DNA of 60,465 nucleotides, from contig JBAYOB010000002.1 in assembly GCA_041678505.1 (NCBI GenBank), positions 1 to 60,465 on the forward strand. Direction: 5' to 3'. The notes beneath the pieces were generated by a model, which worked only from the letters and a program-made list of their open reading frames with translations, searched no databases and was not told the origin of the DNA. Shown piece by piece: positions 14,430 through 60,465 of the stretch. Position numbers and translations under genes: made by a program. Each line of letters starts with the position of its first letter. The stretch's first letter is position 1. Origin of the DNA: Candidatus Dojkabacteria bacterium (lineage in GTDB: Bacteria; Patescibacteriota; Dojkabacteria; SC72).

Positions 14430-15047
14430 ATGGAGAAGAAGAGACGAAGTAAAGGAGATGGTTATCTTTTTGTAGTTGGAGGTCCAGGATCTTCTGGGAG
14501 CACAGTAATTTCAGAGGAGTTAAGTAAATATTTCAACTTAAGAAGGATCTATGCGGGCTCTATATTTCGTACAATTATCCTAGAGAAAGGTTATGAGAAG
14601 GTAGAAGACTTTTATAAAGAGTCTAACAAAGAAGAACTACTAAAACTAGATATGCAGGTAGATAGATATCTTTTGGAGGAATCCAAAAAAAAGGATATCT
14701 TAATAGAATCAAAAATATTTGCAGGGATACTACATATAAAAGATATTCCTGCAACTGTCACCATATGGTTAGATGCATCTTTGCATGTTCGCACTTCAAG
14801 GTATTTAAATAAATTAAATTTAAGTAACTTTTGGACTAAACTACTGGAATATTTTAGAACTAGAAGAAATCTTAAAAAAAGATGGAGATTAGATAGTAAA
14901 AGATACAAAGATTTGTATGGAGTGGATTATAGTAAACCAAAGATGTACAATGATATTGTAATAGATTCTTCCAAGATGAATCAGGAAGAAACCTTTGATT
15001 TAATTTTAAAAAAAATAAAGGATGGACGATATCTTGAAAGTGAATGA
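14430..15047 (+). CDS. Archaeal-type cytidylate kinase-like P-loop NMP kinase
   Basis: P-loop VVGGPGSSGSTV; the layout IYAGSIFR...VTIWLDASLHVRTSRY...YGVDYS resembles short CMP kinases. Confidence 0.5.
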   Translation: MEKKRRSKGDGYLFVVGGPGSSGSTVISEELSKYFNLRRIYAGSIFRTIILEKGYEKVEDFYKESNKEELLKLDMQVDRYLLEESKKKDILIESKIFAGILHIKDIPATVTIWLDASLHVRTSRYLNKLNLSNFWTKLLEYFRTRRNLKKRWRLDSKRYKDLYGVDYSKPKMYNDIVIDSSKMNQEETFDLILKKIKDGRYLESE

Positions 15048-15240
15048 GCAAAGTAATACTAATTCTCTACAGGATCAAGAGAATTATAATCCTAATTATG
15101 TAACTCCTGATGATTTAGATAGTAGATGGCTACGTTGGAAATGTCTAGTATGTGGGTATATTTACGAAGGGGTTACACCAATTAAGGTTTGTCCAAAATG
15201 TGGGAATCAAGATCCTGATAAATTTGATGATGCTGAGTAG
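15022..15240 (+). CDS. Rubredoxin-like zinc-ribbon protein
   Basis: WKCLVCGYIYEG...CPKCG (CxxC...CxxC); the start is uncertain and the ORF overlaps the preceding gene by 26 nt. Confidence 0.5.
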   Translation: MDDILKVNEQSNTNSLQDQENYNPNYVTPDDLDSRWLRWKCLVCGYIYEGVTPIKVCPKCGNQDPDKFDDAE

Positions 15241-15250
15241 TTGTTTTCTA

Positions 15251-15334
15251 TGCCGGGAGAGGGAATCGAACCCTCACTCTATTGCTAGAACGGGATTTTA
15301 AGTCCCGCGCGTCTGCCTTTTCCGCCATCCCGGC
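15251..15334 (-). tRNA. tRNA-Leu (anticodon UAA), long variable arm, no encoded CCA
   Basis: The reverse complement GCCGGGATGGCGGAAAAGGCAGACGCGCGGGACTTAAAATCCCG...GGGTTCGATTCCCTCTCCCGGCA folds as a cloverleaf with anticodon loop CTTAAAA. Confidence 0.85.
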
Positions 15335-15384
15335 CAATATCTAGGTATTTTAATCTAAAAAGTAGCTATTTTCAATAATATGAG

Positions 15385-15457
15385 AGGTGACGACGGGAGT
15401 CGAACCCGTGATAGTGGTTTTGCAGACCACGGCCTTAACCAACTTGGCTACGTCACC
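15385..15457 (-). tRNA. tRNA-Cys (anticodon GCA)
   Basis: Reverse complement: GGTGACGTAGCCAAGTTGGTTAAGGCCGTGGTCTGCAAAACCACTATCACGGGTTCGACTCCCGTCGTCACCT. It has anticodon loop CTGCAAA, discriminator U73 and an A13:A22 mismatch, all typical of tRNA-Cys. Confidence 0.85.
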
Positions 15458-15464
15458 AAGGGAA

Positions 15465-16868
15465 TTAATAATCAAGTACATCCTTTATAGTAGCTATTTC
15501 AAAGATAAGGTCATTTTCTTTATTTTTTATTGAGCTACCAGTAATAATAGCAATTTTGTCTGTTAAATCCAACTCTCCGTAGGTATAAATGGTCTGTATT
15601 GCTCTTGTAATGCTCTCATCTCTATCATCGGAAAGACCTTTAACATAGAAAGACTTTACATTTCTAAAAATACAATCCTGCCTTACTCTTTCAAAGTTTG
15701 AACTAATAGACCATATTGGAACGGATGGTCTATGTCGAGAGATACTTGCAACAGTCCCTTTTTCATCTGAGAAAACAGCTATTCCTTTTAATGGGAGACT
15801 TTCACTAAGAAGTGCTACATTCCTAGATATTTCATCTACTTCTTCATTGGCAGAGGTAGTGCCGTATATAGGAGATAGCTGCATAATAGATTCTGTATTT
15901 AATGCAATTTTATTCATAACCTTTACGGCATCTATTGGATTTTTCCCAGTAGATGTCTCTGCAGAAAGCATTAAAGCATCAGCACCATCCATTATTGCAT
16001 TTGCAACATCAGAAACTTCGGCTCTAGTAGGTTTAATATTATCCTTCATTGATTCAAGCATTTGTGTTGCTACAATTACTGGCTTACCTTTAGCTCTACA
16101 TTTATATATCATCTGCTTCTGTAGTATAGGGATATTTTCTAATGGTGTTTCCACACCTAAATCTCCTCTTGCAATCATTACAACATCGGTAATTTCAAGT
16201 ATTTCATCAAAATTCTCAACTCCTTCTTTGTTTTCTATCTTCGCAATAATTTTAATATTGGAATCTCCTATTATTTCTTTTACATGGAGAATATCATTCT
16301 TACTCCTTACAAAAGAGATTGATAAAAAGTCTAGGTTTTGACTTACAGCAATCTGAATATCTTTTATATCTTTCTCTGTTACAGTTGGGAAGTTTAAATT
16401 AATACTAGGAATATTTACCGTTTTGTTTGGTTTAAGTAAGCCGGGTTGTATTACATCACAGATGAGTTCTGTACCTTTTATTTCTGTTACTTTTAATTCT
16501 ATTGAGCCATCATCTAAAAAGATACTTGTATCTTTTGCTAAAAGAAGATGTAAATCGGGATATGAAACTTTAATACTGTTTGGTGTGGAAGAATTAAAAG
16601 AAGAAAGGGAAACTCTGTTTTTTATCTCAATGGTTTTTTTTAAGTCTCTTACTCTTATTTTAGTTCCTTTTGTATCAAGCATTACTGCTATTCTCGGAGA
16701 GATTTCTCTTAATGTTTTTGTTACTCTAGTAATTTCTTCTAAATCAGCAAATGAAGCGTTTATCCTTGCTATTTCCATTCCATTCTTGAACATTTCTGTG
16801 AGAACACCTCTGTCCCAAGTAGATGGTCCTATTGTTGCTATTATTTTGGTTGCTGCTAAGTTTTTCAT
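15465..16868 (-). CDS. pyk: Pyruvate kinase
   Basis: TKIIATIGPS, ARINASF, MLDTKGTKIR, IIAKIENKEGVENFDEI, MIARGDLGVE and VATQMLESM motifs. Confidence 0.85.
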   Translation of the reverse strand: MKNLAATKIIATIGPSTWDRGVLTEMFKNGMEIARINASFADLEEITRVTKTLREISPRIAVMLDTKGTKIRVRDLKKTIEIKNRVSLSSFNSSTPNSIKVSYPDLHLLLAKDTSIFLDDGSIELKVTEIKGTELICDVIQPGLLKPNKTVNIPSINLNFPTVTEKDIKDIQIAVSQNLDFLSISFVRSKNDILHVKEIIGDSNIKIIAKIENKEGVENFDEILEITDVVMIARGDLGVETPLENIPILQKQMIYKCRAKGKPVIVATQMLESMKDNIKPTRAEVSDVANAIMDGADALMLSAETSTGKNPIDAVKVMNKIALNTESIMQLSPIYGTTSANEEVDEISRNVALLSESLPLKGIAVFSDEKGTVASISRHRPSVPIWSISSNFERVRQDCIFRNVKSFYVKGLSDDRDESITRAIQTIYTYGELDLTDKIAIITGSSIKNKENDLIFEIATIKDVLDY

Positions 16869-52012: not shown

Positions 52013-52720
52013 ATGAACAAAACTATCAACAATTTAAGAAAAGAATTAAAAGAGAATGTTAATGACCATACTAAAAATACGACTCAAAGATTTTTTAAGG
52101 AAGAGATAAAAATCTATGGAGTTAAGATTCCAGTAGTAAATAGTATTGCAAAGAGATATTTTAGAGAGATTAAAGAGTTAGATAAAGGAGAGATATTCTT
52201 ACTGTGTGAAGAGCTGTTCTCATCAGGGTATATGGAAGAATCATTTGTAGCATGTGATTGGTCTTACAATTTAAGAGAGAGTTATGAAGAGAAAGATTTT
52301 TTAATATTTGAAGATTGGACTAAGCAATATATTAATAATTGGGCAGTATGTGATAGGTTCTGCAATCATACAATGGGTTCTTTTCTTAAGAAATATCCTA
52401 AATATGTAAAGAATTTAAAAGAATGGACAGGATCTAAAAATAGATGGGTTAGAAGAGCTTCTTCTGTTTCATTAATTATCCCAGCTAAGAAAGGAGAGTT
52501 TTTAAAAGATGTTTTTGAAATTGCAGATTTGCTTTTAAATGATGAAGATGATCTTGTACAAAAAGGTTACGGTTGGTTATTGAAAGTTGCAAGTGAAATT
52601 AATCAGAAGCAGGTATATGATTTTGTAGTAGCAAGAAAAGATACTATGCCAAGAACTGCATACAGGTATGCTATTGAGAAGATGCCTGTTAGTTTAAAGA
52701 AAGAAGCGATGAAGAAATAG
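52013..52720 (+). CDS. DNA alkylation repair protein (HEAT-repeat AlkC/AlkD-like family)
   Basis: RFFKEEIKIYGVKIPVV..., NNWAVCD, NRWVRRASSVSLI and QKGYGWLLK, typical of this family. Confidence 0.6.
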   Translation: MNKTINNLRKELKENVNDHTKNTTQRFFKEEIKIYGVKIPVVNSIAKRYFREIKELDKGEIFLLCEELFSSGYMEESFVACDWSYNLRESYEEKDFLIFEDWTKQYINNWAVCDRFCNHTMGSFLKKYPKYVKNLKEWTGSKNRWVRRASSVSLIIPAKKGEFLKDVFEIADLLLNDEDDLVQKGYGWLLKVASEINQKQVYDFVVARKDTMPRTAYRYAIEKMPVSLKKEAMKK

Positions 52721-52781
52721 TTTCTTAGCAAGAAAGGTTTGTCTTTTAAAATATTTAAATTAAATAATAGTGTTTTAAATT

Positions 52782-53120
52782 ATGAATATTAAAGATATAC
52801 AGAAATGGGAAAGAGATTTCTCTCGCAAGAAGGGTATTGCACAGGATGAGGAGAAAGCAATAAAGATAGGAATATTAAAATTAACAGAGGAGGTAGGTGA
52901 ATTATCAAAGGCTATTTTAGAGAAGAATTGGGAAGAGGTACCTGCAGAGGTTACTGATGTTATTGTGTTTGCTTGTAAGCTTGCTAATATAGCAGAGGAT
53001 TTTCATAATACAGAGAAGTTGGAAGAGGTTATGGAGGCTAAGTTAGAGTTTTGTGAGAAAAGGGTATATGACAAAGAGAAGAATAAATTTGATAAGCCAG
53101 CAGATAAGAAGTTTAAGTAG
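52782..53120 (+). CDS. MazG-like nucleotide pyrophosphohydrolase
   Basis: LKLTEEVGELSKAI ... EVTDVIVFACKLAN, the EExxE...D helical MazG signature. Confidence 0.5.
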   Translation: MNIKDIQKWERDFSRKKGIAQDEEKAIKIGILKLTEEVGELSKAILEKNWEEVPAEVTDVIVFACKLANIAEDFHNTEKLEEVMEAKLEFCEKRVYDKEKNKFDKPADKKFK

Positions 53121-53436
53121 AGAGATAATAATATTTCTTATACTAACCACTTATCTATTTTGGATCCAGATATTTTGCCACTTAAAAACCCATGTAGAGA
53201 GTTGTACTTGTTTTTCAGAATTAAGAGAGAAGACATTTTGAAAAGAAGAAAAAGCAAAAGAAGAACTAGGAAATGATAGCAAAAAAGAATCCTATGGAAC
53301 AGAGGTAGTTGTGGCCACATACAAATCCTGCTTTTGAGACCTTAAATAGTCAATGTTTACCATATTATTTAATAGGTATTTGAGACTTACCAAGCAAAAT
53401 TGTTTTCCTTTCTTTTGTATTCTAGAATGCACTACG

Positions 53437-53742
53437 ATGAAAAGAGATAATAAAAGCTGCATTGTTGTGATACTAGTAATAGTTGGTCTATACTTGCTTT
53501 TTAGAAATGTAATTACTTCTTCGAGAGCAACTGAAGGTATAGATGATTATAATGACTGCGTTGAAGAAGTACGACTTATATATAAAGAAATAATTCTAGA
53601 AGCTTGTGAGATGAATTCCTCAGTACATGAACCAGAAGTCATTAAGGATTGTGTGAATAGGTTAAATGCTGCTAAGGAACGTTATCTGATAAATATAATT
53701 ACAGAAGAGATATCTCAATGTGAATATTATTTGGGCAACTAA
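53437..53742 (+). CDS. Hypothetical small membrane-anchored protein
   Basis: MKRDNKSCIVVILVIVGLYLLF, then a soluble Cys-containing region. The track start at 53353 adds an unlikely leader. Confidence 0.35.
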   Translation: MKRDNKSCIVVILVIVGLYLLFRNVITSSRATEGIDDYNDCVEEVRLIYKEIILEACEMNSSVHEPEVIKDCVNRLNAAKERYLINIITEEISQCEYYLGN

Positions 53743-53924
53743 ATCTTAAAGAACTTCTCGGTAAAGAAACTCTAAAGCCATTTTTGTTATTAATTAAGTC
53801 TATCTTAATGCTATAACAGATAAGGAATAAGTTGTGGGAGTAAACGATTTTAGCCTCTTTAAACTTTTAATAAATGTTAAAAAGGGTTAGAAAAACTACC
53901 TTAGAAAGTATTTTTTCAAAATTT

Positions 53925-53933
53925 TGATATAAT
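53925..53933 (+). promoter_or_regulatory. Extended -10 box (TGaTATAAT) ending 7 nt before the ATG at 53940, implying a leaderless mRNA
   Basis: ttTGATATAATacattaATG; there is no SD between the box and the start codon. Confidence 0.3.
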
Positions 53934-53939
53934 ACATTA

Positions 53940-55367
53940 ATGATTAGAAGGTTGAATGACTATCTAAACATAAGTAACAAGGAGCTTGCAAGGTATGGAG
54001 CTTTTAATAGTTTTCTTGGTATTGATACAAAAGTTTTCTTAGACCCTCTACTTTTAGGAAATCTGAATACCCCTGAATTCTCTGCTTCCAGAGATCGTAT
54101 ACGTGAATATTATCGAAAGATTATTGTGTTATTAAATGCTTCAAAAGAAGAAGGTGATGTTGCTTGGATAGAAGCTTTTAAACGATTGAAAGTAAAGGAG
54201 ATTAAAGGCTTTTCTATCGGTTATGGGAATCATTCGGATGATGGCAATGGGATTGGATCTAAATTAGCGGAAGCTATTGTGAGGAGGGCAAAAGAAATAG
54301 TTGATATGGGAATTGAAGACCCTGAGATCTTTGAATTAATAGGCTTGTTTGAGGAAGGTATAGGAGCAGATAGATTAAGTGATCTCACAATAAAGATTGT
54401 TCACAAAGATCTCTTAGCATATTCGGCCAGAATAACACAAGAAATAGGCTTCTCTAATTTAATAGCAGTAAAATATAAAGAAAATAAATATTTTCTACCA
54501 AGGAATCCTTTAGGTACAAAGCCTATTTATTTTCTTCCTCAAAATGCCCTGAGAGACTTACCAATTGCTCTGGATTGGGATGAAATTGAAATTGTGACTA
54601 ATTTTAATATAGAATTGAGAAAAAAAGTAAATCAAGCAGTATCTGAAGTTTGGCAAAAATCTGTTAAAGAGAAGAAGAAAAAAATGATGCAAGTTATAAG
54701 ACAGGACCCAGAAATCCTTAAGAGTATGATTGAAGCCTACAAACATTCTAAAGGAAAAGGATATGATTTTGAAAATGATCCTAATGTTGAAATTAAATGG
54801 TTATCTATTGGTCAGAAAATTGCCAAAGAAAATCCTATTAAAATTTCTGCTTCTAAAAAATATACAAAGAAGAGTGTTTGTAAGATTTTGGATCAAATAA
54901 TAAAACAATATAAGAAATTGATAGAGTTTAATGGTCTAAATAACGAGTTATATAGAAAAGAAGGGTCAAAATTGATTCCTCATCATGAAAGAGTTGCTCA
55001 GCGTATATTTTTCGCTATCGCTGATACTTACTGTGCGGCAAATAATATAGGAATCAACAGAGAACCTAATGCTGGCTCTGGTTCTGTTGATTTTAAGTTT
55101 GGAATTGGTTATGAGGATAAAATTTTAGTTGAGATCAAACTTTCTAAGAACCCTGGGTTAAAGAATAAGTATCGTTCTCAAGTCGATATCTATATGAAAG
55201 CTGAAGGAACTGAAGAAAGTATATATCTTGTAATTAAAGTTACTGAGAAAAGTAAGCAATTGGAAGAATTAATTGAAATTGATGAGGAGGCTAAAAATTT
55301 GGGTCAAAAAGTGCCAAAACTCTATGTCATTGATGGAACAATAAAACCGTCGGCTAGTAAGAGATAA
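53940..55367 (+). CDS. Hypothetical protein: unknown ~340-aa N-terminal region fused to a C-terminal PD-(D/E)xK nuclease-like domain
   Basis: C-terminal signature HHERVAQRIFFAI (helix Glu) ... GSGSVDFKF (Asp) ... 14 aa ... ILVEIKLSKN (ExK) ... YRSQVDIYM. Confidence 0.5.
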   Translation: MIRRLNDYLNISNKELARYGAFNSFLGIDTKVFLDPLLLGNLNTPEFSASRDRIREYYRKIIVLLNASKEEGDVAWIEAFKRLKVKEIKGFSIGYGNHSDDGNGIGSKLAEAIVRRAKEIVDMGIEDPEIFELIGLFEEGIGADRLSDLTIKIVHKDLLAYSARITQEIGFSNLIAVKYKENKYFLPRNPLGTKPIYFLPQNALRDLPIALDWDEIEIVTNFNIELRKKVNQAVSEVWQKSVKEKKKKMMQVIRQDPEILKSMIEAYKHSKGKGYDFENDPNVEIKWLSIGQKIAKENPIKISASKKYTKKSVCKILDQIIKQYKKLIEFNGLNNELYRKEGSKLIPHHERVAQRIFFAIADTYCAANNIGINREPNAGSGSVDFKFGIGYEDKILVEIKLSKNPGLKNKYRSQVDIYMKAEGTEESIYLVIKVTEKSKQLEELIEIDEEAKNLGQKVPKLYVIDGTIKPSASKR

Positions 55368-55428
55368 AATCTTTTAATGTAGTATTTCTTGTTTTGTAGT
55401 TTTTTGGGTATAATTTCTTAAAGAAGGC

Positions 55429-56118
55429 ATGTATACATTATTTGTTTATATAGATGAAAGTGGAGATCTGATCTTTTCAAACAAAGGATCTAATTATTAT
55501 ATAATTACTTCGGTTATTACACATAATCCTCTTCCTGCAATTGAAAAGTTAGAAGAGCTAAGATTGGAAATTCTAAGTCAAAATAAGTTTCCAACTCTTT
55601 CAGATGACTATTTGCAAAAAAATACTGCTAATGGTTTTCATGCTACTTATGACAAGCAAGTTGTTCGAAATGAAGTTTTTGATATTATCCAATCTTTAGG
55701 TCATACAATTGCTGTCAATGCTGTAGTTATAGAAAAAAGAAAAGCTAATCCTTCAATTCGTGATACGAATAAGTTTTATTCTAAAATGTCTGCTTCTTTA
55801 TTGAAATATATTCAACAGAAGTATCGGTATAGTAACCTGTGTATAATGTTCAGCGGTACTCCAACAGAGAAAAAAAAGAATTTATTCAAATCAGCCATAA
55901 AAACAGAGATTAAAGCTCTTTCAATTACTAAGTCCTATAAGATTTATTTCCCTAATCCAAAATCTGATAGATTTTTAAATATTTCTGATTATGCATGCTG
56001 GGCAATTGCTAGAAAGTGGGAGAAAAATGATATAAGAAGTTATGATCTAATAAAAAGCCAGATAAATGTACCTGAGTTAGATATATTTCGCAGAGGGGAT
56101 GGTACTTTGTATTATTGA
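55429..56118 (+). CDS. DUF3800-family protein
   Basis: N-terminal LFVYIDESGDL motif and C-terminal NISDYACWAIARKW motif, characteristic of DUF3800 as I recall it. Confidence 0.55.
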   Translation: MYTLFVYIDESGDLIFSNKGSNYYIITSVITHNPLPAIEKLEELRLEILSQNKFPTLSDDYLQKNTANGFHATYDKQVVRNEVFDIIQSLGHTIAVNAVVIEKRKANPSIRDTNKFYSKMSASLLKYIQQKYRYSNLCIMFSGTPTEKKKNLFKSAIKTEIKALSITKSYKIYFPNPKSDRFLNISDYACWAIARKWEKNDIRSYDLIKSQINVPELDIFRRGDGTLYY

Positions 56119-56197
56119 CCTCTTCTCCTAGATAATTCAGCTTTCGCCGAGTTTCCTCCAACTATCAAAGCCAAAGGGGCTCTTTCAGAGAAGAGGT
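56118..56197. repeat. GC-enriched element closed by a perfect 10-bp inverted repeat
   Basis: ACCTCTTCTC (56118-27) pairs with GAGAAGAGGT (56188-97), enclosing 60 nt that contain an inner GCTTT/AAAGC pairing. It starts at the DUF3800 stop codon. Confidence 0.5.
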
Positions 56198-56378
56198 ACC
56201 TTTGAATAATAATAACAGTGTATGTATCTTTTGTAAATATTCCTCACAAGTAATTCAGAAAAATGCTGCTATGTCCCTCTTTTTTGATTCCTTGGTTTTT
56301 ATCAAGTCAAAATTAATTTAGACATTTTCTATGAGTTGTTTAATTGGTATTCTAGCATTTGAAAAATAATCAAACTTT

Positions 56379-56445
56379 ATGTTCTACTGAGAGTCTTCAG
56401 TAGAACATGGGGTCAGATAAGGGACATAGTAGAACACTTATCTGA
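56379..56445. repeat. Twin perfect hairpins sharing a thrice-repeated 9-mer (candidate origin/operator or structured RNA)
   Basis: Hairpin A is ATGTTCTACTGA-GAGTCT-TCAGTAGAACAT (12 bp, 56379-408). Hairpin B is TCAGATAAG-15 nt-CTTATCTGA (9 bp, 56413-45). AGTAGAACA occurs at 56399-407 and 56428-436, and inverted at 56380-88. Confidence 0.6.
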
Positions 56446-56535
56446 AGGTATAACAATTAATAGATTCCTTTTAGAAACAATTGAGAGTGTGTTGTATTCA
56501 AAAGTAACTATTCCCAATGTATAATCTTCTAATTT

Positions 56536-58044
56536 ATGAAAATATCAAAATCAGAATATCTTATGTATCTGGATGCTCCAATGCATCTGTGGGCATATGT
56601 ACACAAGAAGCTAGATTCTAATATCATAGATACTTTTACAAAACATCTATTTGAACAAGGATATGAAGTTCAAAAATATGCAAAAGAATACATTGAAAAA
56701 ATACTGATTCCAGATTCTTATCATAATACTAAGCAATTTAATCTTGAAGTAACAAAATCAGATGGGTTATTTGAAGCAAGGATAGATTTACTTGTTTTTA
56801 ATGAAAAGAAGGGAAATTGGGACTTAATTGAAATAAAGAGTACTAATGATATCAAACCTATTCATCAAAAAGATTTGACTTTTCAATATCTTATTTTTTC
56901 TAAGCACTATAAAATTGGTAAGTGTTATATTTTACATTTGGATAAAGATTATGAAAGGAAAGGTCAATTATCAATTAAAGAATTATTTACATTAACAGAT
57001 ATTACTGAAAAGGTTTTTGAATTAGTTGAAGCAGTGAATATTGAAAGATTCCTAGCTTTAGAAGTAGCTCAACTAGAAGAGTTCAAAGAAGTAGAAGCCT
57101 GTATTAAACCCAAGAAGTGTCCCTGCAAATCCCTTTGTCATCCAGTATTACCTTCTTACTCCTTATATGATGTTGCCCGTATTAGTAAGGAAAAAGTAAA
57201 TTTTATTAGGGATAATTATTCAAATGATATACAGGATTTACCAAATGATAATCAATTAGGTAAATATGCACTAACTGAAATCCAAAGAAAACAAGTAGAT
57301 GTGGCTCAAAGAAAAACATCATATATTGATATATTGGGGATAGAATCTTTCTTAAAAGAACTTAAATATCCTTTATACTTTATTGATTATGAAAGTTTTA
57401 TTCCTGCTATTCCTATGTATGACAATTATAAACCCTATGATCAAATGCCTTTCCAATATTCATTGCATATTAGAGAATCAAGTGATTCAGACTTTATACA
57501 TAAGGAATATCTAGAATGTTCAGCTGTTGATCCTTCTGTAGGTTTAATAAATTTTTTAAAAAGAGATATCCCTTTGGATGGTGGATCAATAATAATTTGG
57601 AGTAAGTTTGAAAGAACTCAAAACAATGCTATGAGCAGAAGATATCCAAAAGAGTCTGAATTTATTGAGAATATTAATTCTAGGCTTTGGGACTTGATGG
57701 AAATATTCCAGAAATCAATGCTTGTTCTTCCAGAATTTAAAGGTAGCTATTCTATTAAAAATATTTTGCCTGTTCTTGTACCTGAGCTTTCTTACAAAGG
57801 TATGCCTATTGCAGATGGGTCAGTTGCTATGACAAAGTGGGTGCAGATGGTCTATGGAGGTGGGATTACAGCCATGGATTATTCAGAATCTGAAGATGGT
57901 TTTTGTACAGAGGCTATAGATATTCCTAAAGAATCTGTGAATAAAGAAGAAGTCAAAAAGAATCTTTTAGAATATTGTAAGTTAGATACCTGGGCTATGG
58001 TAAAGATTTTGGAGAAAGTGGAATCCATTATAAAAGCTTCTTAA
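56536..58044 (+). CDS. DUF2779-type protein: N-terminal Cas4/RecB-like PD-(D/E)xK domain, Cys cluster and a C-terminal acidic-motif domain
   Basis: EARIDLLVF...WDLIEIKS (D...ExK), CIKPKKCPCKSLC (four Cys), then YPLYFIDYESF...MPFQYSLH...YCKLDTWAMV. Confidence 0.55.
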   Translation: MKISKSEYLMYLDAPMHLWAYVHKKLDSNIIDTFTKHLFEQGYEVQKYAKEYIEKILIPDSYHNTKQFNLEVTKSDGLFEARIDLLVFNEKKGNWDLIEIKSTNDIKPIHQKDLTFQYLIFSKHYKIGKCYILHLDKDYERKGQLSIKELFTLTDITEKVFELVEAVNIERFLALEVAQLEEFKEVEACIKPKKCPCKSLCHPVLPSYSLYDVARISKEKVNFIRDNYSNDIQDLPNDNQLGKYALTEIQRKQVDVAQRKTSYIDILGIESFLKELKYPLYFIDYESFIPAIPMYDNYKPYDQMPFQYSLHIRESSDSDFIHKEYLECSAVDPSVGLINFLKRDIPLDGGSIIIWSKFERTQNNAMSRRYPKESEFIENINSRLWDLMEIFQKSMLVLPEFKGSYSIKNILPVLVPELSYKGMPIADGSVAMTKWVQMVYGGGITAMDYSESEDGFCTEAIDIPKESVNKEEVKKNLLEYCKLDTWAMVKILEKVESIIKAS

Positions 58045-58054
58045 AATTATGGAC

Positions 58055-58083
58055 TAGACAGGATATCCCTAGCTTGTTATACT
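58055..58083 (+). promoter_or_regulatory. Sigma70-like promoter TAGACA-N17-TATACT
   Basis: TAGACA at 58055-60, an exact 17-nt spacer and TATACT at 58078-83, immediately after the DUF2779 stop. Confidence 0.4.
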
Positions 58084-58149
58084 ATTTCTAGAAGTACTTG
58101 GGTGGTGCTTCGCTTTATCTCAATAAGGCAAAAAAACAAGAAGGAATGT

Positions 58150-58184
58150 AAGACACTAAGTTATTTAGAGTGTCTTTTTTGTTT
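58150..58184 (+). terminator. Rho-independent terminator/attenuator hairpin
   Basis: AAGACACT (58150-57) pairs with AGTGTCTT (58169-76), followed by TTTTGTTT. Confidence 0.55.
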
Positions 58185-58439
58185 AAAGATGTAATTGAAA
58201 ATAAAATTGAATCAGTTTTTGAAAGTAAGCACCCCTACTCTGGTAACAATTATCCAAAGCTTTTAAATCTCCTTGAAAAGACAGAAGGAGGACCTATTCA
58301 AAATGGAGAATATTATGTTAACTCTTTAATCAAATTTATCAGTATTTTAAATGAGGCAGAAGAGGAATCTCAAAGAAAGGAGGTAATCCCTGAAGAAGTC
58401 AAAAAGAGTTCTTTCAGAGATAGACAGAATGGAGATTAG
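58170..58439 (+). CDS. Doubtful hypothetical ORF (GTG/TTG start inside the terminator stem)
   Basis: It has no ATG in frame and starts within the 3' arm of the hairpin. Its composition is protein-like, but nothing else supports it. Confidence 0.25.
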   Translation: MSFLFKDVIENKIESVFESKHPYSGNNYPKLLNLLEKTEGGPIQNGEYYVNSLIKFISILNEAEEESQRKEVIPEEVKKSSFRDRQNGD

Positions 58440-58725
58440 TGAGATTCAGTTTGTTCCTGTTAAACCTCAAGGTGGTCTTGTTGCTTTTGCAAGTTTTGTA
58501 TTAAACAATTGCTTGTATCTAGGGTCTATTGGTATAGTAACAAGGCCAAGTGGAGGATACCGTTTATTATATCCCAGTAAGAAGGTTCTTAATCAAAATT
58601 TTTCAATCTTCCACCCTATTACTCAGCAATTTGGTATAGATATTGAAAGAAGAATACTCTTAGAATATGAAAAGGTAATGAAAATGAATGATAGACACGG
58701 TTGTTTTAACAATACCAGTACTTAG
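58429..58725 (+). CDS. SpoVG-like nucleic-acid-binding protein
   Basis: MEISEIQFVPVKPQGGLVAFASFVLNNCLYLGSIGIVTRPSGGYRLLYPSKK...FHPITQQFGIDIERRIL follows the SpoVG pattern (MEITDVR...KAFVSIT...PSRK...HPI). Confidence 0.55.
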   Translation: MEISEIQFVPVKPQGGLVAFASFVLNNCLYLGSIGIVTRPSGGYRLLYPSKKVLNQNFSIFHPITQQFGIDIERRILLEYEKVMKMNDRHGCFNNTST

Positions 58726-59791
58726 AGAAAATATTCTTGCTCCTGAGAGATTTTCACCATCTGCTAATGGATTATTTAAAGAACCCTTTTACAAGGGATA
58801 TACTCCATGTAAATTAAACCCATCAAAAGAGCAAAAAGATGAAGGGAGATATCTTCCAAGATTAACATTGTCTTCTAGACCTAAGAAGGGAAATTGGGAG
58901 GTTTCCCTAAGGATAGAGTTCTCTGCCCCAAAGATTCTATTTGGAAATAATCTAAAAGAAGTTGATGATAAGGATTATAAAGAGTTAATATCTGAACTTT
59001 GCTTCAAACTCTTTACAATGGGCATTAAATTAGATCAAGAACAGATAGAAAAGGCTTCTGTATCTTCTATACACTTCTGTAAGAATATACTCCTAGAACC
59101 CTACCAGAGCTGCTCTATGGTCATCAATGAGCTAGAAAGGTATGGGAACTATAATGAATGGTTGGATTTAGATAAAACAAGCTTTAGAAATGGAGGACAT
59201 ATTCTTCATCTTCACACTGATAGGTGGGAATTTGTGGTATATGATAAGTTAAGAGATCTTCAAAGAGCAAAATTAGGTGAAAGAAGATCTGTTGATAAAG
59301 ATAATTACTCCCAATTAGACATTTTTAATGATGATAAGAGCAAACAAGAAATTTTAAGATTGGAGTTAAGAATTAATAGTAAAATAAAGATTGCTACACT
59401 ATTGTCAAGTGTTGGCTGTGGTATGGCTCTAAAAAACATTACATTCAGAAATATCTTTAAGAAAGTTATATCAAGGAGATTATTAATAGCATTTTTAAGA
59501 AAGATAAAAATAATGAGGAGTATTTCAAATCAGAATACAAGTAATAGCAATATTCTTTCAATCTGTGAGAGCATAAAGAAGTCTCTTCCTCTAATAACAG
59601 ATAGTGAAATAATGAAACTAACTTTTGGTTTTATTTTTATCAATGAATATGGAATTAAAGCTTTTAAAAGGTATATGCAGTGGAATACCAAAAAAGCATA
59701 TAAATGGAACAGATTCTATAAAAAATTAGAGAAAATTTATACAGTGTGTAATAATAGAGACACTTTGGAAATAATTGAATCAAAAATATGA
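58688..59791 (+). CDS. Rolling-circle replication initiator of the filamentous-phage gene II/X (CRI) family
   Basis: MIDTVVLTIPV matches f1/M13 gpII MIDMLVLRLPF. LRIEFSAPKILFGNNL matches VEIKASPAKVLQGHNV. VSSIHF matches ISRIDATF, and ILRLELRINSK matches LVRFEARIKTR. The gpII sequence is from memory. Confidence 0.6.
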   Translation: MIDTVVLTIPVLRENILAPERFSPSANGLFKEPFYKGYTPCKLNPSKEQKDEGRYLPRLTLSSRPKKGNWEVSLRIEFSAPKILFGNNLKEVDDKDYKELISELCFKLFTMGIKLDQEQIEKASVSSIHFCKNILLEPYQSCSMVINELERYGNYNEWLDLDKTSFRNGGHILHLHTDRWEFVVYDKLRDLQRAKLGERRSVDKDNYSQLDIFNDDKSKQEILRLELRINSKIKIATLLSSVGCGMALKNITFRNIFKKVISRRLLIAFLRKIKIMRSISNQNTSNSNILSICESIKKSLPLITDSEIMKLTFGFIFINEYGIKAFKRYMQWNTKKAYKWNRFYKKLEKIYTVCNNRDTLEIIESKI

Positions 59792-60465
59792 GTACTAAAA
59801 AAGAATTAAAATTTATTGATCTTTTTGCAGGTATTGGGGGAACAAGAATTGGGTTTGAACAAGCAACTAAAGAGTTAGGTTTTATTCCTAAATGTGTGTT
59901 TACATCAGAGATAAAGACTGATGCTATTAATGTTTATTCTCAAAACTTTCAAGATAAAAAAATTGCAGGTGATATAACCCAAATTGAAGCAAAAGAAATT
60001 CCGGACTTTAATTTCCTTCTTGCAGGTTTTCCTTGCCAACCTTTTAGCTCTGCAGGAAGCAGAAAGGGATTTTTAGATACAAGAGGAACTCTATTTTTTG
60101 ATATAGAAAGAATATTAAAAGAGAAAGAGCCTGAAGGTTTCCTACTTGAAAATGTTGAAGGTTTGGTTAATCATGACAGGGGTAGAACTCTGTCTACTAT
60201 TCTCCAATCCCTTGAGAATCTTGGGTACAAGGTTGCTTGGAAAGTTATTAATGCAGCTAATCATGGAATCCCTCAAAATAGAAAAAGAATCTATATTGTT
60301 GGAAGAAGAGATAAGTTTGTTTCTTTGGAGAATTTAGTACAACAAGAATCAAAATTAGAAGATCTTTTAGAGAAGGATTTGCCTGCTTACAAATCTAAAT
60401 TTACTAAAAGACTTTTAGAGCATTATAAGTTAGATGAACTTGTAGGGAAATCTATAAAGGATAAA
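59788..60465 (+). CDS. dcm: DNA (cytosine-5)-methyltransferase, N-terminal 226 aa; runs off the window end
   Basis: Own translation: MSTKKELKFIDLFAGIGGTRIGF (motif I), GFPCQPFSSAG (motif IV), LLENVEGL (motif VI) and QNRKRIYIVG (motif VIII). The ATG overlaps the Rep TGA (ATGA). Confidence 0.85.
   Translation, partial: MSTKKELKFIDLFAGIGGTRIGFEQATKELGFIPKCVFTSEIKTDAINVYSQNFQDKKIAGDITQIEAKEIPDFNFLLAGFPCQPFSSAGSRKGFLDTRGTLFFDIERILKEKEPEGFLLENVEGLVNHDRGRTLSTILQSLENLGYKVAWKVINAANHGIPQNRKRIYIVGRRDKFVSLENLVQQESKLEDLLEKDLPAYKSKFTKRLLEHYKLDELVGKSIKDK

Follow-up and report, generated by a model that had tools for sequence, protein, structure and literature searches.

Gene and Protein Family

The stretch of DNA analyzed here, which we call the window, comprises positions 1 to 60,465 (its whole length, 60,465 nucleotides) of contig JBAYOB010000002.1 from a Candidatus Dojkabacteria bacterium (assembly GCA_041678505.1). 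It carries a complete gene for a 475 amino acid (aa) protein in which an N-terminal module, DUF8370, is joined to a C-terminal module, DUF8371, that is predicted to be a nuclease of the PD-(D/E)xK type. A preliminary description had pointed to this protein as a possible single-gene defense nuclease laid out like Shedu; we find the open reading frame (ORF), its strand, its length, and its ATG start exactly as given there. The coordinates of the gene, of its modules and conserved residues, and of two features downstream are collected in Table 1.

Table 1. Positions of the gene, its predicted functional residues, and downstream features in the window
Feature	Position	Strand	Basis or remark
Complete gene, 475 aa	53940..55367	+	ORF list, ATG start; DUF8370 + DUF8371 architecture
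N-terminal module, aa 1-300 (homologous core aa ~6-265), DUF8370, mostly helical	53940..54839	+	PDC-M36A match, hhalign
N-terminal signature, whole span	54024..54383	+	Conserved 0.84-1.0 in 188 sequences of all subfamilies
D29	54024-26	+	N-terminal signature
D35-P36	54042-47	+	N-terminal signature
E87	54198-200	+	N-terminal signature
G94	54219-21	+	N-terminal signature
Gly-rich loop G102/G104/G106	54243-57	+	N-terminal signature
D144-x2-S147-D148	54369-83	+	N-terminal signature
C-terminal module, aa 305-475, DUF8371, predicted PD-(D/E)xK fold	54852..55364	+	Domain-only AlphaFold2 model, Foldseek
Predicted active-site residues, whole span E350 to Y418	54987..55193	+	Invariant in 120 sequences
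E350	54987-89	+	Predicted active site
Q354		+	Predicted active site
D384	55089-91	+	Predicted active site
E398	55131-33	+	Predicted active site
K400	55137-39	+	Predicted active site
Q414	55179-81	+	Predicted active site
Y418	55191-93	+	Predicted active site
DUF3800 gene, 229 aa, 61 bp downstream	55429..56118	+	Pfam DUF3800 E = 3.6e-10; PADLOC DUF3800_VII E = 1.6e-14
Hairpin GTTCTACTGA-gagtct-TCAGTAGAAC, then strain divergence point	56381..56413	.	blastn of loci L001, L002, and L003 against the window

Searching 5.8 billion proteins, we obtained at least 503 homologues at E ≤ 1e-3, the best 120 of which align over 96-100% of the query with 38-83% identity and are ~472 aa long. By this comparison the gene is confirmed as real and conserved, far beyond chance. 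Precomputed Pfam annotation assigns PF28123 (DUF8370) to the N-terminal part and PF28130 (DUF8371) to the C-terminal part of the window protein and of all 120 listed homologues; in our local copies, of which Pfam lacks these two entries, the protein has no Pfam match at E ≤ 0.1 and none in NCBIfam. PHROG 30194, to which no function is assigned, matches its full length (E = 1e-102), and a full-chain AlphaFold2 (AF2) model has a mean predicted local distance difference test score (pLDDT) of 82.9 and a predicted template modeling score of 0.81.

Across 185,579 species, each represented by one genome, tblastn confirmed 175 stretches in more than 20 phyla, including many lineages of the candidate phyla radiation; the scan was limited by a search pattern, so that this count is a lower bound. 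The gene is found in ~0.1% of species-representative genomes and is rare and patchy across phyla. Among 72,556 plasmids there are 11 matches. We regard the combination of DUF8370 and DUF8371 as an uncharacterized, horizontally mobile family, both of whose parts are listed in Pfam only as domains of unknown function.

C-Terminal Nuclease Domain

The preliminary description had recognized a PD-(D/E)xK signature in four short elements, and all four are present in the protein: HHERVAQRIFF (E350), GSVDFKF (D384), LVEIKLS (E398 and K400, with E398 14 residues past D384 as had been stated), and YRSQVDIYM (Q414 and Y418). Alignments of 41 and 120 sequences show E350, Q354, D384, E398, K400, Q414, and Y418 to be invariant. 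Because the whole-chain AF2 model is uncertain around D384, residues 296-475 were predicted again alone from 120 sequences, which gave a model with a pLDDT of 87.1. Its predicted elements are helices 350-367, 407-422, and 439-453 and strands 371-374, 385-389, 393-401, 426-433, and 460-465. The canonical α-β-β-β-α-β core, whose absence would have refuted the preliminary reading, is present in this model, preceded by two extra helices and a β-hairpin (aa 310-347), and the D/E/K residues lie in the canonical elements: E350 and Q354 on helix 350-367, D384 at the opening of strand 385-389, E398 and K400 inside strand 393-401, and Q414 and Y418 on helix 407-422.

Foldseek comparison of the C-terminal domain with the PDB gave 865 matches, of which we consider the best 50, and nearly all of the top matches are restriction-fold nucleases. 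They include PspGI (E = 1.5e-3, probability 0.95), SfsA (E = 2.2e-3, probability 0.99), the DdmD nuclease domain (probability 0.97), PaqCI (0.89), CdiA-CT (0.87), and NucS/EndoMS (~0.5), with further matches to Cdn1, Can2, XPF, Mus81, Hef, and Hna; no structure of RecB, Cas4, or lambda exonuclease is among the best 50 of 865. In PDB sequence searches, the single-sequence query and the profile query both returned noise alone (alpha-actinin and vinculin, E > 0.1). A Pfam scan of the 41 alignment members at E ≤ 1 matched 41 families, 25 of which are listed. The sub-threshold matches that recur among those listed are to families of the PDDEXK clan alone: PDDEXK_10 (four times), NucS_C, PDDEXK_3, PDDEXK_9, and tRNA_int_endo. 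The NucS_C match (E = 0.0087) occurs in one of the 41 members.

The motif order D ... (D/E)xK ... QxxxY is complete (GSVD384, E398-I-K400, and Q414-VDI-Y418, all invariant). A QxxxY element after the ExK strand is the motif of RecB/Cas4/NucS-type nucleases. A Cas4 reading was rejected: the window protein has two cysteines alone (C314 and C365) and therefore has no Cas4-type four-cysteine Fe-S cluster. Taken together, the alignments and the model establish the C-terminal ~170 aa as a predicted restriction-endonuclease-fold PD-(D/E)xK domain with an intact E-D-ExK-QxxxY site; the modeled fold assignment stands at the level of the superfamily only, with no close solved relative.

N-Terminal Module and Its Relatives

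The preliminary description held that the first ~340 aa match nothing recognizable. This does not stand as worded, since the region is matched by DUF8370, by PHROG 30194, and by the PADLOC model PDC-M36A (E = 2e-12, aa 3-298 against profile positions 6-290 of 457); what does stand is that none of the three has an assigned function. PDC-M36 is a phage-defense candidate in PADLOC, proposed through "guilt by embedding" inside BREX, DISARM, and type I restriction-modification (R-M) loci (Payne et al. 2024, bioRxiv 10.1101/2024.01.29.577857). Structure comparison of the N-terminal region gave no recognizable fold: whole-chain Foldseek found no match for the module in the PDB or BFVD, and PDB sequence searches (single sequence and profile) found none either. 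Neither Foldseek nor the Pfam matches listed for the 41 members showed any likeness of DUF8370 to CARF or SAVED.

In 188 sequences covering all architectures, whatever the C-terminal domain, D29, D35-P36, E87, G94, G102, G106, D144, S147, D148, and P200 are conserved at 84-100%. The N terminus had been called variable and sensor-like, a claim that the numbers contradict: mean pairwise identity is 45% over residues 1-210 and 52% over the nuclease core, and residues 126-150 (DPEIFELIGLFEEGIGADRLSDLT) are the best-conserved 25 residues of the entire protein. The N-terminal ~265-300 aa form an autonomous, strongly conserved module with conserved carboxylates and a Gly-rich loop. A helix-hairpin-helix (HhH)-like reading of the G-x-G-I-G-x3-A loop was set aside, with no HhH or HhH-GPD Pfam match at E ≤ 1 among the matches listed for the 41 members, and is kept as a lead only.

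DUF8370 also occurs apart from DUF8371. An Acinetobacter family of ~300 aa carries PF28123 alone, and hhalign relates this stand-alone family to the window family with 99.5% probability (E = 4e-22, columns 6-265). A search of 1.84 billion representatives with the stand-alone profile found 1,830 clusters at E ≤ 1e-3, with bimodal lengths of ~290-320 and ~465-500 aa. Architectures were compared in the 150 representatives listed. The DUF8371 hidden Markov model (HMM) matches none of the 81 listed representatives that are 441-510 aa long; these carry another C-terminal module, which has a D..ExK-like signature of its own (GRKRIDI ... ECKNY ... NPELDQL). This module belongs to PDC-M36A proper, because one such protein (P0293) matches the PDC-M36A model end to end (aa 8-470 on profile positions 8-444). 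Two longer proteins, P0314 (1,144 aa) and P0352 (751 aa), combine DUF8370 with PNP_UDP_1, a domain listed in PADLOC as a "PN-superfamily effector", and a third, P0393 (603 aa), combines it with a CHAT protease. The PNP_UDP_1 part of these fusions also matches PDC-M60C.

On plasmids, tblastn matched the N-terminal part alone in proteins of 304, 480, 489, 602, and 695 aa, all of which match PDC-M36A over its first ~200-290 positions; in a Bacillus thuringiensis plasmid protein (392 aa) the C-terminal part alone was matched, and this protein has no PDC-M36A match. DUF8371 itself is nearly always joined to DUF8370, the exception being a small Bacillales branch of 370-392 aa with another N terminus. 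By sequence comparison, then, the N-terminal module is the constant part and the C-terminal effector the part that is swapped among relatives.

Some relatives keep the DUF8370 signature with a degenerate nuclease motif, for example FIKLKLAKN in Calothrix and ILHIKHANN in Legionella. The ExK or D motif is degenerate in proteins of Calothrix (695 aa, locus L094, 3941-6028), Legionella (602 aa, locus L097, 3980-5788), and Janthinobacterium (480 aa, locus L093, 3971-5413), which are possibly variants with an inactivated nuclease; the Calothrix protein has in addition a long coiled-coil-like tail. In distant DUF8370 subfamilies a gene for an XRE-type helix-turn-helix (HTH) protein with ImmA/IrrE (Peptidase_M78) lies directly upstream or divergent (L102, 3800-5903; L103, 410-2512; L095, 2826-5458; L092, 2587-4840), and the regulators of Roseomonas and of L102 are homologous (E = 3e-26). 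This suggests that XRE/ImmA and DUF8370 form a conserved two-gene unit in these subfamilies, which the subfamily of the window does not have.

Genomic Neighborhoods of Homologues

All-versus-all clustering of the genes within ±4 positions in 83 non-redundant loci gave no conserved neighbor, the largest cluster being integrases at 5 loci, and the gene is accordingly a stand-alone unit in this set, as had been proposed. The expectation that homologues often lie in defense or mobile-element contexts is borne out by many of the loci. In Chryseobacterium koreense the order is HsdR, the gene, GmrSD, and AbiEii, a type I R-M locus in which the gene immediately follows HsdR and precedes GmrSD by 4 bp. 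A Leptospirales metagenome-assembled genome (MAG) has the gene followed by Vsr, EcoRII, and Dcm, in Niabella it follows GAPS4a/b with RES-Xre nearby, and on a metagenome contig AGS_C and a caspase-like protease stand upstream of it. Plasmid copies adjoin a Septu PtuA-B fusion (Janthinobacterium), lie between an Eco57I-type methylase/helicase and AbiEi/Eii (Legionella), or adjoin an integrase and RelE/ParE toxin-antitoxin (TA) modules (a conjugative plasmid of Nitrosospira).

Pooling the immediate neighbors gave 129 proteins, among them R and S subunits of type I R-M systems, Mrr, a DpnI-like protein, a type IV restriction endonuclease, DarT, RES, TIR, PD-Lambda-3, and several PDC-S candidates. 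At ~15 of the 83 loci a tyrosine integrase or serine recombinase is encoded within 6 kb. With a set of just 8 marker families, 22 of the 83 loci are positive within ±6 kb, as a raw count.

Surroundings of the Gene in the Window

Upstream of the gene the window encodes an alanine racemase, a DUF2238 protein, an AlkD-like DNA alkylation repair enzyme, a MazG-like protein, and a small membrane ORF. The AlkD-like enzyme (Pfam E = 7.5e-64) and the small MazG-like pyrophosphohydrolase lie at 52013-53120 on the same strand (+) as the gene and are conserved beside it in all same-species assemblies, with no evident functional link. The window also carries three tRNAs and no rRNA; a scan for promoters and terminators gave counts indistinguishable from those of shuffled sequence.

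The downstream DUF3800 gene adjoins the nuclease gene only in the window's own species, and we rejected it as an operon partner since none of the other loci has DUF3800 beside the gene. Type VII retrons have DUF3800_VII as their RNase H2-like effector domain (Mestre et al. 2020, PMC7736814). A retron reading was likewise dropped, with no reverse transcriptase among the neighbors and no Rfam match at E ≤ 1 across 52700-60465; the DUF3800 gene therefore appears to stand alone and is possibly an independent defense gene.

The hairpin further downstream is perfect, with a 10-bp stem (56381-56406). Same-species assemblies are ~100% identical to the window up to 56413 (12442-12474 in L001 corresponding to the hairpin segment) and wholly unrelated beyond it by blastn. 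Beyond this point the window encodes a DUF2779/RecB-like protein, a SpoVG-like protein, and a 367-aa replication-like protein, and L001 encodes other small proteins, another SpoVG, a 387-aa protein, an NgoPII R-M system, and a large serine recombinase. From this complete divergence between strains we conclude that the gene pair borders an integration hot spot; in sequence terms, 56381-56413 looks like a site that holds different elements in each strain. Integration hot spots are a typical setting of defense genes. The nuclease gene itself is on the conserved side of the junction and identical in all same-species assemblies.

Several features of the variable segment deserve a record of their own. 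The DUF2779 protein (502 aa, 56536-58044, +) has in its N-terminal part, as judged by eye, a D..ExK..QxxxY signature (RIDLLV ... LIEIKS ... QKDLTFQY), along with weak matches to TM0106-family RecB-like nucleases and to a PHROG of Cas4-domain exonucleases. At 58429-59791 (+) the SpoVG-like gene overlaps the start of the 367-aa gene, which has a weak match to a replication-protein PHROG; L001 has at 14723-16145 a pair of SpoVG and ~387-aa genes, in DNA unrelated to that of the window, ahead of the NgoPII R-M system and the serine recombinase; and on the Legionella plasmid (L097, 7990-9293) a SpoVG-family gene, an HTH gene, and an integrase gene follow the DUF8370 gene. SpoVG with a ~367/387-aa gene may be a recurring module of integrative elements.

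Proposed Function and Alternatives

We propose, with a probability of about 55%, that the window protein is a single-gene, single-chain sensor-effector nuclease for anti-phage or anti-plasmid defense, with DUF8370 as its predicted sensor. The intact nuclease site, the autonomous N-terminal module, the swapping of effectors, the absence of a partner gene, the patchy spread, the defense and mobile-element neighborhoods, the link to PDC-M36A, and the context in the window all speak for this proposal. A constant module with interchangeable effectors is the pattern of sensor and regulatory domains in immune proteins such as those with CARF and SAVED, which leads us to read DUF8370 as a sensor. In the proposed mechanism, DUF8370 would detect a cue associated with infection, which may be a nucleic-acid feature or else a small ligand, the latter bound at a pocket formed by D29, E87, D144, S147, and D148; the cue would then license the Mg2+-dependent nuclease, probably by way of a change in conformation or oligomeric state, and the licensed nuclease would degrade DNA. 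PNP and CHAT effectors are typical of abortive infection. Because sister proteins carry these effectors, indiscriminate DNA degradation with growth arrest seems likelier than sequence-specific restriction.

Several observations weigh against this proposal. For the nuclease domain, structure comparison gave weak matches (best E 1.5e-3, TM score ≤ 0.41, 10-16% identity), and the four conserved carboxylates and the Ser of DUF8370 would fit an enzyme active site as well as a sensor pocket. Several distant relatives have degenerate nuclease motifs, so that the main activity may reside in the N-terminal module. The PNP and CHAT fusions amount to just 3 of the 150 listed representatives. The pooled neighbors also include housekeeping enzymes such as DHQ synthase and aconitase, and the homologues of Synechococcus elongatus and of a Phycisphaerae MAG lie among housekeeping genes with no defense gene near. 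PDC-M36, for its part, has candidate status only, according to its authors (bioRxiv 10.1101/2024.01.29.577857). The lack of any tblastn match in 50,697 phage genome records belongs to this list, yet we count it as neutral.

Two alternatives keep the nuclease at the center and change the purpose it serves. The protein could be a modification-dependent (type IV-like) or other self/non-self restriction endonuclease, in which DUF8370 reads modified or other foreign DNA, DUF8371 cuts it, and the cell survives. MspJI-type enzymes consist of an N-terminal module and a C-terminal PD-(D/E)xK domain and have no cognate methyltransferase. The window protein, likewise a single chain with no such methyltransferase, has this layout, its relatives stand beside GmrSD/HsdR in Chryseobacterium and EcoRII, Dcm, and Vsr in Leptospirales, and the G-x-G-I-G-x-x-x-A loop with its helix superficially resembles, on a reading of the sequence, a helix-hairpin-helix clamp on the DNA backbone. 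However, no SRA, EVE, YTH, HhH, or other reader was matched in Pfam at E ≤ 1 among the matches listed for the 41 members, stand-alone DUF8370 proteins exist, and the PNP and CHAT fusions are hard to square with a pure DNA reader, and we think this alternative unlikely. We would give similarly long odds to a toxin, addiction, or competition module of mobile elements, that is, a regulated toxic nuclease that stabilizes or serves integrative elements or plasmids. Homologues on plasmids (one of them small and conjugative) beside integrases and TA modules, the recombinases within 6 kb at ~15 of 83 loci, the hot spot with different elements per strain that the window gene abuts, and the upstream XRE-HTH/ImmA (Peptidase_M78) genes of distant DUF8370 subfamilies, a typical mobile-element switch, would all agree with it. 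Such observations discriminate poorly, however, because defense systems commonly ride on mobile elements; moreover, the gene is on the conserved side of the variable junction in every same-species assembly, and its subfamily has no conserved antitoxin-like or regulator partner.

The remaining alternatives depart further from the proposed sensor-effector nuclease and seem to us decidedly improbable. NucS/EndoMS, XPF, Mus81, and Hef among the structural matches, the AlkD-like and MazG-like genes upstream in the window, and the housekeeping contexts of some homologues would suit a housekeeping or accessory nuclease of DNA repair or recombination (NucS/XPF/Mus81-like) unrelated to immunity, but a gene present in ~0.1% of species-representative genomes and patchy across phyla is unlike a repair function, synteny is not conserved, defense-gene neighbors are frequent, and the N-terminal module is shared with proteins that bear PNP and CHAT. 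Marginally less probable again is that DUF8370 is the catalytic heart of the protein, a new metal-dependent enzyme with nucleic acids or nucleotides as its substrates, and that the PD-(D/E)xK domain is accessory or a second activity. D29, E87, D144, S147, D148, and three glycines are conserved in the 188 sequences in every architecture including the stand-alone one, residues 126-150 are the best-conserved block, and some relatives keep DUF8370 while the nuclease motif has decayed. On the other side, the PDB sequence searches and the PDB and BFVD fold searches gave no likeness to a known enzyme, the nuclease site is also invariant within the window's family, and it is more typically sensor or regulatory domains that are fused to diverse effectors.

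A wider claim, which we advance tentatively and hold to be clearly less likely than the single-gene defense nuclease as such, is that DUF8370 is a new sensor (or catalytic) domain of a single-chain immune superfamily of at least 1,800 clusters with interchangeable effectors. The superfamily would comprise two unrelated PD-(D/E)xK-type modules, a PNP nucleosidase, a CHAT protease, and stand-alone forms, some of them under XRE/ImmA control; the window protein would be the DUF8371-nuclease branch, an infection-triggered abortive DNase with its trigger bound at D29/E87/D144/S147/D148.

If the defense reading is true, the gene represents a widespread single-gene defense family whose interest lies in the N-terminal module more than in an ordinary PD-(D/E)xK nuclease. 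DUF8370 has no structural relative, carries an enzyme-like conserved signature, and is wired to several types of immune effector; its recognition or catalysis would be a new sensing principle in prokaryotic immunity. Two Pfam domains of unknown function and the PADLOC candidate PDC-M36 would gain a function. The one-gene format and the point-mutant predictions for both modules make the proposal directly testable.

Comparison with Known Systems

The nuclease domain shares with PspGI, SfsA, NucS/EndoMS, the CdiA-CT toxins, and the DdmD nuclease domain the α-β-β-β-α-β core and the series of E, D, and ExK followed by a Q..Y helix. It differs from them in its added N-terminal helices and β-hairpin, and the likeness is one of superfamily only. 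With regard to type IV enzymes, no modified-base reader or DNA-binding Pfam family was found in the 41 members at E ≤ 1 among the matches listed, and the N-terminal module has no fold match. Proteins in which CARF or SAVED is joined to an effector (Can2, Cdn1, and Cap4) resemble the DUF8370 proteins in having one conserved non-effector domain with alternative effectors, here a nuclease, a PNP nucleosidase, or a CHAT protease, and the nuclease domains of Can2 and Cdn1 are among the best structural matches to the C terminus of the window protein. In contrast to these proteins, DUF8370 itself has no CARF or SAVED likeness, and the 83 loci show no conserved neighbor that encodes a cyclase or otherwise generates a signal.

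The closest cataloged entity is PDC-M36A. Its N-terminal module is homologous (the model, PDLC04597, is matched by all 41 family members, best E 8e-19), its length is comparable (457 versus 475 aa), both proteins end in a D..ExK-type module, and both occur in or near R-M-type loci. The match, however, ends at profile position 290 of 457, and the C-terminal module beyond is of another family (the GRKRIDI..ECKNY type). PDC-M36 was defined as a three-gene cassette, FAM_01399>>FAM_00303>>FAM_00303 (Table S8, bioRxiv 10.1101/2024.01.29.577857), whereas the window family has no conserved partner. With a partial match (aa 3-298) and no cassette, membership in PDC-M36 was rejected; the N-terminal module alone is held in common.

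Shedu (SduA), with which the protein had been compared at the outset, is likewise a single gene, whose product has a non-catalytic N-terminal region ahead of a C-terminal PD-(D/E)xK nuclease, and the two resemble each other also in their defense-island type neighborhoods and in the NucS/RecB-like QxxxY element of the nuclease. The Shedu domain DUF4263 has been linked to NucS-like nucleases. Shedu itself acts against phages as an oligomeric nuclease that free DNA ends activate. The proposed affinity nevertheless fails. DUF4263 (PF14082) is not matched by the window protein at E ≤ 0.1 and is absent from the 25 listed of the 41 families matched by the 41 members at E ≤ 1; PADLOC gives PDC-M36A alone for the window protein, with no SduA among the 6 families matched by the 41 members; and no Shedu structure is among the best 50 of the 865 PDB matches of the C-terminal domain. 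The lack of a DUF4263/SduA HMM match among the matches listed, together with the conserved N terminus, leads us to reject membership. In Shedu the nuclease is constant and the N terminus varies, while in the window family the N-terminal module is constant and the effector varies, so that a constant DUF8370 with interchangeable effectors makes the domain logic a mirror image of that of Shedu. We liken the window protein to the known single-chain defense nucleases; what is new in it is a sensor-side domain without a known relative and a domain logic unlike that of Shedu.

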